Source: Anaerolinea thermophila (lineage in GTDB: Bacteria > Chloroflexota > Anaerolineae > Anaerolineales > DRKV01). From it: DNA of 27,072 nucleotides. Shown piece after piece: positions 1 through 24,110 of this stretch (the first letter of the stretch is position 1; each line of letters starts with the position of its first letter). The notes beneath the pieces were generated by a model. That model saw only the letters and a list, made by a program, of their open reading frames with translations, made no database searches and was not told the origin of the DNA. Where the stretch lies: NCBI GenBank assembly GCA_020722405.1, contig DYKW01000001.1, positions 18,880 to 45,951 of the forward strand, given 5' to 3'. Position numbers and translations under genes: made by a program.

Positions 1-805
1 ACAGCGCCTCGGTTTCTTGCAGGCTTTGCTGTACTCGTTGGAATAGGGTGGCGTTCTCGAGTGCTAGCGAGAGTTGATCAACGACTTGGGCGACCAGTTG
101 CGTTTCATCCTCATTCCATATACGCTCAGGATTTTCGTCTACTAATTCAACGACACCCAGTGCTTGCTCTTGTAATTGAATCGGTGCAGCCAGCGCGGCC
201 GGCCTTTCGGGCAATTGGGAAGGCCAGGCAACCACTTGTTTGCGTTGCAGACTTTCCCTGGCGGCGGGTGTGAGCGGGTCTTTGGCAGGTGAGATTTTAT
301 CTTGTTCTACCAAAATCCCCTGGGGAATTTGATGGGATGCGGTACCGGTTGGGTGGGAGTCAGCCGGTTTTGCTTTGAATCTCGGGAATGAGGGTTCAAG
401 TTGTTGGCATTGCGTAAACCCCTGATAGCCGGCCGGGGTGTCCCCTTCGGTTGCGGTGCCTGTAATCGTCATGATGGCCGGGATAATGTGTCCATCACGA
501 TGGTGCAACTCAACGCCAATTTCCAGTGGGAAGGTGCCGGCAGTTAGCGCGGCTTCCAGGCGTGGTGCATCTTCTGTGCTCAGTGCGAAGGTCAATGGTT
601 GTCCAAGCCATTCTTCTGTGGAGTAACCCGTTAAATCGGTGCATTGTGGGCTGCAGGCGATGTAGTGTCCCTGGGCATCGGCCTTCCAGTGCCAGCCGCG
701 CAGCGTTTCTTCCGGCGTAGCATGGTCGCCGGTGGGAGGAACGTCCTCCATGCCGGTAAATAGGGTTTCGAGACGGTTACGCAATCGTTTTCGCTTTTTC
801 GACAT
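1..805 (-). CDS. PAS + GAF signalling protein, 5' part only (runs off the left edge); not in the ORF track
   Basis: Hand translation from ATG at 805 (AGGAG 10 nt upstream) is open to base 2. It reads MSKKRKRLRNRLETLF..., then a PAS-like segment GWHWKADAQGHYIACSPQCTDLTGYSTEEWLGQPL...HHRDGHIIP, then a GAF segment LAAPIQLQEQALGVVELVDENPERIWNEDETQLVAQVVDQLSLALENATLF. Confidence 0.9.
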   Translation of the reverse strand, partial: MSKKRKRLRNRLETLFTGMEDVPPTGDHATPEETLRGWHWKADAQGHYIACSPQCTDLTGYSTEEWLGQPLTFALSTEDAPRLEAALTAGTFPLEIGVELHHRDGHIIPAIMTITGTATEGDTPAGYQGFTQCQQLEPSFPRFKAKPADSHPTGTASHQIPQGILVEQDKISPAKDPLTPAARESLQRKQVVAWPSQLPERPAALAAPIQLQEQALGVVELVDENPERIWNEDETQLVAQVVDQLSLALENATLFQRVQQSLQETEAL

Positions 806-1553
806 GTGTTATCAACTCCTGAGCCAAAACCCGGTATTGTTCGGCGCCGCGGCTGACCTTAGAAAAATGTGTTACCGGTACACCAGCCACGGTACTCTCG
901 CGTAATTTGGTGTCAATTTGAATGGCGGTCTGATAAACCTTTTCGCCGAAGCGGGTGCGGATTTGTTTCTCGATGGTACGGTGAACGCCGTTGCGCAAAT
1001 CTAGCATGGTAATCAGAATGCGGTAATCTAAAGTTTTGTTGCCTTTTTGTTGAATTTGGCGAATCAGTTGCAGAACGTTGCGCAGGGCGTAAGCAGAAAA
1101 ATACTCGGCTTGCGTGGGAATGATGAGGTGTTGGGCTGCCATGAGTGCATTACTGGTAACTGCACCCAAGGATGGCGGGCAATCGAGTAAGATGAAGTCA
1201 TACAATGCCGTGTCACGCAACGCCTGGCGGAGGATATGACGGTAATTTTGCCGGATAGGTAAGAAGCGCTCGGCGGTAATCATCTCTTGGTTGGCGGGGA
1301 TGATATCTAGTCCAGGAATATCGGTCTCGCGGCTAGCGCTCAAAGCAGTACTGGCATTGAGAAGTACATCGGCGATGGTGTGTCGCATGGCCGTTGGTTG
1401 TAGCCCGATACCTAAAGTCAGGTTTGCCTGAGCGTCCAAATCCACTAAGAGCACTTCGTATCCATTTTCAACCAATGCACCGCCGAGTGCCAGGCAGGTG
1501 GTGGTTTTGGCTACACCGCCTTTTTCATTTGCTACGGCAATAATATGGGTCAT
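777..1553 (-). CDS. parA: ParA/Soj-family ATPase (orphan, no parB in window)
   Basis: Deviant Walker A KGGVAKTTT, LLVDLDAQANLT, DFILLDCPPSLG, IIPTQAEYFS and TMLDLR; AGGAG upstream of the ATG. Confidence 0.95.
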   Translation of the reverse strand: MTHIIAVANEKGGVAKTTTCLALGGALVENGYEVLLVDLDAQANLTLGIGLQPTAMRHTIADVLLNASTALSASRETDIPGLDIIPANQEMITAERFLPIRQNYRHILRQALRDTALYDFILLDCPPSLGAVTSNALMAAQHLIIPTQAEYFSAYALRNVLQLIRQIQQKGNKTLDYRILITMLDLRNGVHRTIEKQIRTRFGEKVYQTAIQIDTKLRESTVAGVPVTHFSKVSRGAEQYRVLAQELITHVEKAKTIA

Positions 1554-1569
1554 AAGGTGCTCCTGGATT

Positions 1570-23245: not shown

Positions 23246-23704
23246 TTATCCGGTAATTTCCCAGACCGATTCACCTGCTAATATGCGGCGTATTTGATCT
23301 GGAAAACGATCAGGGTTGAGGGGTTTTCCGATAAACCCGTCAAAACCAGCCTCCCGTGCCTTTTTAATTTGTTCTAAACTGGCTTCAGCAGTGACAGCCA
23401 CCACTAAAGTGTCTTTCAGCCGTTTGGATGCCCGAATTTTCTTAAGTGCTCCGTATCCATCTTCATAGGGGAGGCGGATATCCATGAGCACTAAGTCGAC
23501 GTGTGGCAAAGTGTCGGCGTATTCGACAACCTCATATCCGGACGTTTTCCATTCGCAGTGAATACCCATGTAACCGAGCATACGGGCAATCAAAACAAAG
23601 TTGGAAACATTGTCTTCAACTACTAGAACAATGGCGTCATTGGGGATGATGTTCTCGTTTTTTGAGGATTGTGGAGATGGAGATGGAGATTCAGGAATTG
23701 ACAT
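23246..23704 (-). CDS. Single-domain response regulator receiver (DivK/CheY-like)
   Basis: VLVVEDN, DLVLMDIRLPYEDG (phospho-Asp), VTAEA, GFDGFIGKP; short Ser/Pro-rich N-terminal extension. Confidence 0.93.
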   Translation of the reverse strand: MSIPESPSPSPQSSKNENIIPNDAIVLVVEDNVSNFVLIARMLGYMGIHCEWKTSGYEVVEYADTLPHVDLVLMDIRLPYEDGYGALKKIRASKRLKDTLVVAVTAEASLEQIKKAREAGFDGFIGKPLNPDRFPDQIRRILAGESVWEITG

Positions 23705-23726
23705 GGTCTTATTTGGTGTAAATCAG

Positions 23727-24110
23727 TTAGCGGCCCAGATAGGTATTGATTTGCCTGGGCAGGCTGTCAACATCTATCGGTTTTTGAATGTAACCATCAC
23801 ATCCGGCATCTAGTGTGCGTTCTTTGTCTCCGCGCATTACATTGGCGGTTAACGCAACGATGGGCACACCTTTTAAATGTGGAATCTGTTTGAGTTTGGT
23901 GGTTAGCGTATAGCCGTCCATGTCTGGCATGTTGATGTCCACCAAAATTAAATCGGGGCGAAAATCTTTTTGGATGATTTCCAATGCTTGCAGTGCGTTT
24001 TCGGCCTCAACGACATTGAAGTCCTCAGCCATCAAAATGCGCCGGATGAGCAGACGGTTATCTGGGTTGTCTTCGACATATAGGATGGTAATGGTATCTT
24101 GATCAAACAT
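23727..24110 (-). CDS. Single-domain response regulator receiver (DivK-like)
   Basis: ILYVEDN, DLILVDINMPDMDG, LTANVMRGDKERTLDAGCDGYIQKPI; GGAG upstream. Confidence 0.95.
   Translation of the reverse strand: MFDQDTITILYVEDNPDNRLLIRRILMAEDFNVVEAENALQALEIIQKDFRPDLILVDINMPDMDGYTLTTKLKQIPHLKGVPIVALTANVMRGDKERTLDAGCDGYIQKPIDVDSLPRQINTYLGR

Follow-up and report, generated by a model that had tools for sequence, protein, structure and literature searches.

A conserved Anaerolineae operon in which many enzyme-less GAF sensors probably serve one shared histidine kinase, together with a ParA ATPase and an enzymatic output

What can a row of sensor proteins achieve when not one of them ends in an output domain? 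The question is raised by 27,072 nucleotides (nt) of DNA from Anaerolinea thermophila (GenBank assembly GCA_020722405.1, contig DYKW01000001.1, positions 18,880 to 45,951; G000:C216:18880-45951 in our own numbering), the whole of which is called the window hereafter. From window position 24110 down to 1, 14 genes of a signalling operon all lie on the minus strand, separated by intergenic distances of -38 to +22 nt with the single exception of 120 nt after receiver 2. In the order of transcription they encode receivers 1 and 2, a soluble MshEN-GAF protein, eight membrane sensors with an NMT1-type lipoprotein among them, a ParA ATPase and a histidine kinase, and these are followed outside the window by a threonine-synthase-like protein with a receiver domain (ThrC-like-REC) and an EamA transporter. 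The best explanation is that the window holds the upstream two-thirds of an operon-like signalling system of Anaerolineae of about 37 kb. On balance, we favour the view that this is a large operon of enzyme-less sensors serving one shared kinase, accompanied by ParA and by an enzymatic output. All operon genes are under purifying selection, with ratios of nonsynonymous to synonymous substitution rates (dN/dS) of 0.09-0.21.

Domains were called with Pfam and NCBIfam profiles on the proteins of the window. Pfam GAF matches are found in all nine sensors (70-143 bits against cut-offs of 22-29), and none of the nine has a match to HisKA, HATPase, GGDEF, EAL, HD-GYP, PP2C, MCPsignal or helix-turn-helix (HTH) profiles at E<=0.01. 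The fronts of the eight membrane sensors differ: MASE11 is present in one, dCache_3 with HAMP in another, a multi-transmembrane (multi-TM) region with dCache_1 and HAMP in four, and a multi-TM region only in two. Behind these fronts, the eight proteins can be aligned over the whole of their C-terminal 350 residues, with 32%-38% identity. An earlier annotation of this stretch, referred to here as the original prediction, had proposed that the sensors are output-less, which agrees with the scan of the nine paralogs for a catalytic C-terminal domain, with an AlphaFold2 model and with Foldseek. It had also described eight consecutive membrane sensors with a common module; the module stands, but the row is not consecutive, as the NMT1-type lipoprotein gene lies between the sixth and seventh array genes (counting the soluble member as the first). 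The lipoprotein gene has kept this position in the orthologous operons L003, L004 and L088. Moreover, the soluble MshEN member, the binding lipoprotein, ParA and the two receivers named in the original prediction are all matched by Pfam or NCBIfam profiles. The soluble protein matches the profile of the MshE-type domain that binds cyclic di-GMP (c-di-GMP) over residues 38-95 of 697 (NF053729, 47.4 bits against a cut-off of 38), and it is thus the predicted c-di-GMP-binding member of the array.

The sensors do not appear to be recent or decaying copies. In a tree, the paralogs group into orthogroups that are shared across species, and their dN/dS values of 0.14-0.21 (0.21 for sensor E, measured against an ortholog of 85% identity) rule out decayed pseudogenes. 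A search with the whole module returned more than 1,200 close homologs, none of which carries an output domain; among the module matches listed, the names are generic, mostly "GAF domain-containing protein", and the organisms named are Anaerolineae or Chloroflexota.

The shared module was modelled with AlphaFold2 for sensor H, using 111 homologs in the alignment (predicted local distance difference test score, pLDDT, 87.7). In the model, a 50-residue helix leads from a canonical GAF1 to a reduced GAF2 of five strands, after which come a helix of 45 residues, a short helix and a disordered end. Foldseek searches with this module retrieved solely GAF domains and phytochrome-like GAF-PHY rods, the top matches being GAF domains with target-normalised TM-scores of 0.74-0.86. 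GAF1 is the best-conserved part of the sensors and holds most of the near-invariant residues (dN/dS 0.06-0.13). A free-methionine-sulfoxide-reductase-type enzyme was the top Foldseek match of GAF1, but this identity was rejected, given that no invariant or near-invariant Cys occurs among the 111 aligned homologs.

All nine sensors end in a stub of about 55 residues. Its last 52 ordered residues match GAF1 positions 1-52 without gaps (hhalign, E 2.6e-4), corresponding to two helices and the first strand, while GAF2 matches GAF1 positions 57-171 in the same kind of profile comparison. The protein ends at most 36 amino acids (aa) past the stub in 105 of 109 homologs, and stub dN/dS values of 0.02-0.31 indicate purifying selection. 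As judged from the profile match, the stub is the start of a GAF domain. The hhalign pattern hinted at a circularly permuted GAF formed by GAF2 and the stub; permutation is unsupported, however, because the AlphaFold2 model gives GAF2 five strands of its own and renders the stub as two low-confidence helices with a disordered end. A degenerate hairpin of the dimerization and histidine phosphotransfer (DHp) type, with His replaced by Glu, was also considered for the stub and rejected, having reached a probability of 1.2% versus 42% for a GAF start once the shared preceding helix was removed.

The gene that follows parA probably encodes the target of these sensors. The original prediction saw here a "PAS-GAF hub" and no recognised kinase, and both points have to be revised: the hub is the beginning of a HisKA/HATPase hybrid kinase that leaves the window, and the kinase is of a classical kind. 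Beyond the window edge lies an open reading frame (ORF) of 2979 aa with at least 10 GAF domains, HisKA, HATPase_c and two REC domains. In the orthologous operons L003 and L004, whose sensor H orthologs are 71% and 53% identical to that of the window, parA is followed by one uninterrupted ORF, of 3432 and 3418 aa, respectively. These ORFs start 29 nt inside the parA stop, the same start position as that of the PAS-GAF frame here; the 268 residues of the window match residues 1-267 of the orthologous kinases, and the frame after the masked stretch matches them from residue 418. By this alignment the PAS-GAF frame is the N-terminus of a predicted hybrid histidine kinase of about 3,400 residues, and the continuity of its gene in this assembly would follow from the relatives. 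The masked stretch itself (L002 18780-18879, 100 N) is situated just left of the window, inside the kinase gene, and the junction with its missing GAF could be a collapsed repeat in the assembly.

With HisKA, HATPase_c and REC domains present, the system has the parts of a two-component or phosphorelay system, and it appears to be a two-component system whose kinase uses many kinase-less co-sensors. The kinases coupled to ParA begin with a peptide and a low-complexity linker, followed by a reduced GAF of the sensor GAF2 type, and most of them carry a GAF1-type domain directly before DHp; in the kinase of this genome the order before the catalytic part is GAF1, reduced GAF, DHp. Another arrangement is found at a locus without ParA (L089; G114:C1:2802000-2821900), where a membrane-anchored kinase of 2341 aa bears a sensor-like GAF1-GAF2 front on the same chain. 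Judged by its domain order, this protein is a natural fusion of the two halves, sensor and kinase, that are split in the operon studied here.

ParA is identified by its profile and its motif (AAA_31 165 bits, and CbiA), since the sequence NEKGGVAKTT agrees with the deviant Walker A pattern KGGxxK[ST]; the closest solved structures are the Soj proteins 1WCV, 2BEK and 6IUB (E 1e-38 to 1e-40). It is not the chromosomal Soj, as complete relatives have a separate Soj-ParB pair elsewhere. In the closed genome G118, the ParA ortholog (56% identity) is located in the operon and a distinct Soj-ParB pair lies 1.9 Mb away. No ParB gene (TIGR00180) adjoins the operon ParA, and G118 and G253 have ParB beside a different ParA elsewhere. 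A ParABS partition system was rejected likewise, the downstream gene being the kinase and not ParB.

About 40 loci with ParA were compared. In most of them, parA has a sensor gene upstream and overlaps at its stop, by 8-41 nt, with the next gene, which encodes a GAF kinase wherever the locus extends far enough. The N-terminal peptide of these kinases has a consensus of approximately M-(S/P)-K-K-x-K-(I/L)-x-K-R-L-x-x-L-F-x-D, with the core KKxKxxRLxxLF. The motif occurs in 33 of 35 ORFs downstream of ParA versus 11 of 444 other ORFs of the GAF family (Fisher p 4e-39, a value that is overstated, given the post hoc definition of the motif and the relatedness of the loci). A further sample comprised 40 genomes picked by the ThrC-REC marker; in a family of the same order (f2), all six sampled members have a soluble kinase that carries the peptide, with ParA encoded next to it. 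Where no ParA adjoins the kinase gene (about 28 kinases), the N-terminal peptide is absent throughout, and about half of these proteins begin with a membrane helix in its place. That the peptide and ParA occur together is the strongest indication that they cooperate. The pattern also suggests that the role of ParA is to position a soluble kinase. A complex of the ATP-bound ParA dimer with kinase residues 1-45 was predicted with an ipSAE of 0.54 versus 0.02 for the best control, with peptide residues 4-23 lying across the dimer. In the calibration of this score, 51 of 78 solved complexes and 2 of 108 mismatched pairs attained the mark; just 5 of the solved complexes gave scores of 0.60 or lower, and 0.54 is rated as weak support.

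The genes downstream of the kinase point to a likely output, and they lie outside the window on which the original prediction was made. The first encodes a protein of 574 aa with a zinc ribbon, a threonine-synthase-like domain dependent on pyridoxal phosphate (PLP) and a receiver, and the second encodes the EamA transporter. ThrC-like-REC follows the kinase in all of the at least 14 loci that reach that far (E ~1e-170), and an EamA gene comes after it in the loci that extend that far. Across 15 species, 46% of the positions of ThrC-like-REC are at least 93% identical, and both the PLP-lysine motif SFKDR and the receiver Asp are kept. The protein scores below the NCBIfam equivalog cut-offs (PRK08197, 256 vs 303 bits; TIGR00260, 143 vs 167 bits), and complete relatives have a separate housekeeping thrC elsewhere at 256-297 bits. 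On these scores the 574-aa enzyme is ThrC-like but not ThrC. In one family (f26; genomes G023, G069 and G110), ThrC-like-REC lies within frames of 1067-1402 aa and may be fused to a further domain. Judging from gene linkage, the most likely output is phosphorylation-dependent control of the PLP enzyme together with export of its product. Receivers 1 and 2, too, may be outputs, or else they may serve as phosphate sinks. Orthologs of receiver 1 head arrays in 13 other loci, and orthologs of receiver 2 (185-250 bits) were found in 17 loci, in every case adjoining receiver 1.

A scan of species-representative genomes yielded 79 loci, all of them in Chloroflexota and mostly in Anaerolineae. Within 10 kb on either side, at least two stub-ending sensors were found in 76 of the 79 loci and at least three in 69, while 39 have ParA-like genes, 27 have kinases and 18 have small receivers; since the arrays extend past this view, all of these counts are lower bounds. 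Loci with visible ends show one constant order, running from receiver 1 and receiver 2 through a large GAF protein, the sensors and ParA to the GAF kinase with two receivers, ThrC-like-REC and EamA. In the closed 4.4-Mb genome G118, of the same order, all ten full-module sensors are encoded in one 32-kb operon with the kinase adjacent, and in the present genome all eight full-module sensors fall within the array of the window. Of 301 genomes sampled evenly from the class, 81 carry the ThrC-like-REC marker, which occurs in all or none of the members of a family, and in at least 10 families the kinase/ThrC-REC pair has stub-ending GAF proteins upstream of it. The family is therefore not scattered, and the recurring neighbourhood for which the original prediction had proposed a check was recovered across loci, in the form of arrays with ParA, a GAF kinase and twin receivers. 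Its parts recur to different degrees: the kinase and the receivers do, whereas ParA does not outside one order among the genomes sampled and the MshEN front does not in the other loci examined. There, a single-sequence search did not find the MshEN front, and the equivalent position is occupied by a membrane-anchored large GAF protein, for which reason MshEN was rejected as a recurrent part of the system. A query with GAF2 and the stub matched 18,103 cluster representatives, many of them giant GAF-only proteins. Five examples (P0011, P0025, P0028, P0023 and P0043) have 1,400-2,700 aa and 7-13 GAF domains with no other Pfam domain, their best GAF2-plus-stub match being near the C-terminus. This suggests that a wider class of GAF-only rods exists.

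How, then, might the sensors act? We propose that each sensor would touch the shared kinase directly and hand on its state through a rod of HAMP or S-helix, GAF1 and GAF2. The likeliest interface would lie between the GAF2-plus-stub end of the sensor and the similar reduced-GAF module at the N-terminus of the kinase, and this is the most economical model because the modules are shared by both partners and the sensor-kinase fusion in L089 joins them on one chain. ParA would bind the ParB-like peptide at the kinase N-terminus and thereby position or tether the soluble kinase, which is consistent with the comparative evidence and, weakly, with the model of the complex. The kinase would then phosphorylate the receivers, and the ThrC-like enzyme would be the most likely output, so that the synthesis and export of an amino-acid-derived compound could be switched; strict gene linkage points in this direction. 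By analogy with chemosensory arrays, it is possible that the GAF modules take the role of the hairpin of methyl-accepting chemotaxis proteins (MCPs) and cluster physically on the kinase.

Several observations weigh against this proposal. At the kinase junction of this assembly there are 100 N, across which the reading frame shifts by one base; relative to the orthologous kinases, about 150 residues are absent here, amounting to one whole GAF between two ENATLFQ motifs. The stub is of low confidence and undocked in the monomer AlphaFold2 model. The N-modules of the kinases form a clade apart from all sensor modules (support 100/98); concerted evolution of the two was rejected accordingly, there being no sign of co-homogenisation. 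Kinase length and sensor number are unrelated, as G118 has 10 sensors and a kinase of 1049 aa and L031 has 3 sensors and one of 1803 aa; it is therefore unlikely that every sensor docks onto a GAF of its own. The ParA-peptide score of 0.54 could stem from likeness to solved complexes of Soj with ParB peptides, and ParA is restricted to the order of the window among the genomes sampled. Several families possess the kinase/ThrC-REC pair with no stub-ending sensor within 14 kb. Finally, a search for RNA data turned up no run that covers the locus.

The same facts can be read in other ways. One alternative, comparable to the action of RetS on GacS, is that the sensors are decoys or negative regulators, which would titrate the kinase by joining it in mixed but inactive complexes through shared GAF modules; the GAF1-type and GAF2-type modules common to both partners would permit this, and the lack of scaling just described is in keeping with it. 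Eight or more ancient, individually conserved paralogs with differing inputs fit integration equally well, and we regard titration as unlikely. Contact might also be dispensable altogether. GAF1 could bind one diffusible ligand, be it the product of the ThrC-like enzyme or a nucleotide messenger, and the sensors and the kinase would then be coupled by a small molecule or by feedback. The strong conservation of GAF1, the recurrence of GAF1-type domains in the kinase and the strict linkage of enzyme and exporter genes are what such a ligand would predict, but the sensors have no enzymatic output with which to make or destroy a messenger, and conservation of GAF1 could equally mean a protein interface; a contact-free system therefore seems quite unlikely to us.

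The sensors could be independent of the kinase, with the stub recruiting some other partner, such as ParA or a cytoskeletal or envelope target, and linkage reflecting co-regulation only. Some arrays indeed show no kinase within 10 kb on either side, but arrays exceed this view, the kinase follows wherever the array end is visible, and G118 keeps all ten of its full-module sensors in the kinase operon, all of which makes independence very unlikely. It is scarcely credible that the sensors are functionless remnants of histidine kinases stripped of their DHp and catalytic and ATP-binding (CA) domains. A related array does contain a membrane kinase with the same type of front (dCache-HAMP-GAF-HisKA-HATPase), yet the selection and conservation data contradict decay: dN/dS is low in the sensors, the stub is conserved, nearly all homologs end alike, orthogroups are common across species and close homologs are numerous. 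Sensors that serve the shared kinase by contact thus remain our preferred reading.

The comparison with known systems begins with chemotaxis, to which the original prediction had opposed a non-Che architecture. This view is upheld. PF00015 (MCPsignal) is absent from all proteins of the window, from this genome (59% complete) and from two genomes of the same order that are at least 99% complete and carry the system; PF01584 (CheW/CheA coupling) is absent from this genome, G118 and G253. Membership in a Che system was rejected, since neither an MCPsignal nor a CheW domain was found and no feature looked for in a Che system was present. G114 has a Che cluster, about 2.5 Mb from its signalling system. 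ParA-like positioning of chemosensory arrays is known from PpfA-TlpT of Rhodobacter sphaeroides and ParC-ParP of Vibrio (PMC4085708, PMC5706961), and TlpT not only bridges but also activates PpfA (PMC4085708). Like Che arrays with a ParA, the present system has many enzyme-less receptors with varied inputs, one conserved cytoplasmic module and one kinase, and like systems of the PpfA-TlpT type it has CheY-like receivers, a dedicated ParA paralog and a cargo with an N-terminal ParB-like peptide. Unlike them, the locus is devoid of the MCPsignal hairpin, CheW, CheA, CheB and CheR, its module is GAF-based, its kinase is a classical HisKA/HATPase hybrid, and the linked output is an enzyme with an exporter rather than a motor.

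GAF proteins that assist a kinase have precedents. NreA is a GAF-only accessory sensor of the histidine kinase NreB. In Streptomyces, the output-less GAF protein CvnF8 binds the kinase CvnA8 and modulates its activity, and accessories of the CvnF type occur where the kinase has no sensory domain of its own (PMC13343842). CvnF8-CvnA8 is the nearest characterised precedent for a GAF protein that modulates a kinase. Both precedents employ one small soluble accessory per kinase, whereas here 4-10 large, stub-ended membrane sensors accompany each kinase, and a ParA and a different output are present as well. The sensors resemble tandem GAF rods and the GAF-PHY rods of phytochromes in fold and in the long helices that link successive GAF-type domains; unlike phytochromes, they have no chromophore-binding Cys signature and no kinase on the chain, which stops early in a further GAF. 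The system shares with ParABS (Soj-Spo0J) a Soj-like ParA, and the basic N-terminal RLxxLF peptide of its partner appears to resemble the ParB peptide. It differs in having no adjacent ParB gene or parS and in that the partner of ParA is a histidine kinase. In agreement with the original prediction, in which no named system was recognised, we found no description or name for it in the literature searched; the system, conserved in Anaerolineae, is apparently undescribed.

The features of the operon within the window are listed in Table 1. Just upstream, a tRNA-Gly(CCC) gene at 24711-24782 (minus strand) forms a separate transcription unit, with a perfect sigma-70-type promoter at 24825-24797 and a hairpin terminator at 24710-24681. 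Upstream of the tRNA follow a hexapeptide-repeat acyltransferase gene (24858-25469, minus strand), apparently unrelated to the signalling system, and an IS630-type transposase with DDE_3 and HTH domains (25745-26899, plus strand). Beside the transposase, at 25610-25697 (plus strand), there is a sub-threshold Rfam match to a group II intron catalytic domain (25.6 bits, where the gathering score is 40). At the other end of the locus, beyond the EamA gene, three ORFs of 1014, 517 and 259 aa are found (L002 424-5824, plus strand), the first of which has GAF-type matches.

Table 1. Coordinates of the operon features, given as window positions in the order of transcription
Feature	Position	Strand	Basis or remark
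Promoter-like site, possible operon start	24131..24158	-	20 nt 5' of receiver 1; 9/12 consensus matches plus extended TG; consensus match only
Receiver 1, CheY-like single-domain response regulator, 127 aa	23727..24110	-	Pfam Response_reg, E 1e-28; Asp/Thr/Lys kept
Receiver 2, single-domain response regulator, 152 aa	23246..23704	-	Pfam Response_reg; intact Asp/Thr/Lys; very strongly conserved
Soluble array member, 697 aa: MshEN, GAF, middle region, GAF, stub	21032..23125	-	NF053729; two Pfam GAF; no TM segment; C-terminal stub like other sensors
Sensor B, 547 aa: MASE11 membrane domain, GAF1, reduced GAF2, stub	19392..21035	-	Pfam, TM prediction, C-terminal alignment
Sensor C, 718 aa: dCache_3, HAMP, GAF1, GAF2, stub	17215..19371	-	
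Sensor D, 908 aa: multi-TM, dCache_1, HAMP, GAF1, GAF2, stub	14492..17218	-	
Sensor E, 965 aa: multi-TM, dCache_1, HAMP, GAF1, GAF2, stub	11632..14529	-	
Sensor F, 960 aa: multi-TM, dCache_1, HAMP, GAF1, GAF2, stub	8763..11645	-	
NMT1/THI5-type solute-binding lipoprotein, 341 aa	7766..8791	-	Pfam NMT1, E 5e-37
Sensor G, 910 aa: multi-TM, dCache_1, HAMP, GAF1, GAF2, stub	5024..7756	-	
Sensor H, 575 aa: multi-TM front without Pfam match, GAF1, GAF2, stub	3297..5024	-	Source of the modelled module
Conserved stub, example of sensor H residues 513-564	3333..3488	-	First helices and first strand of a GAF, then the protein ends
Sensor I, 576 aa: multi-TM front without Pfam match, GAF1, GAF2, stub	1570..3300	-	
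ParA/Soj-type ATPase, 258 aa, Walker A KGGVAKT	777..1553	-	Pfam AAA_31/CbiA
Kinase N-terminal peptide MSKKRKRLRNRLETLFTG, proposed as ParA-activating or tethering	746..805	-	Motif conservation and complex prediction
Kinase N-terminal 268 residues: ParB-like peptide, PAS, reduced GAF	1..805	-	Gene runs past the window edge

To our knowledge, bacterial kinases outside chemotaxis either bear sensors of their own or rely on a single accessory protein. In the system described here, one classical histidine kinase appears to be shared by as many as ten sensors, which are ancient, each conserved in its own right and different in their inputs, and this kinase appears to come with its own ParA positioning ATPase and an enzymatic output. 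We tentatively entertain a wider idea, which is more doubtful than the shared kinase as such: the operon could represent a second, non-Che array of many receptors on one kinase, in which stub and GAF2 plug into the N-module of the kinase, the kinase is held by its own ParA through the ParB-like peptide, and the PLP enzyme and exporter are gated, possibly releasing a secreted amino-acid-derived signal in filamentous Anaerolineae. Four parts are well enough delimited for direct tests, namely the stub, the N-module of the kinase, its N-terminal peptide and the ThrC-like-REC enzyme. If the coupling is true, it would show how a two-component kinase integrates many signals and would extend ParA-cargo systems to a classical kinase. 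It would also provide a first handle on signalling in the Anaerolineae, an abundant but little-studied group that occurs in sludge, sediments and mats.

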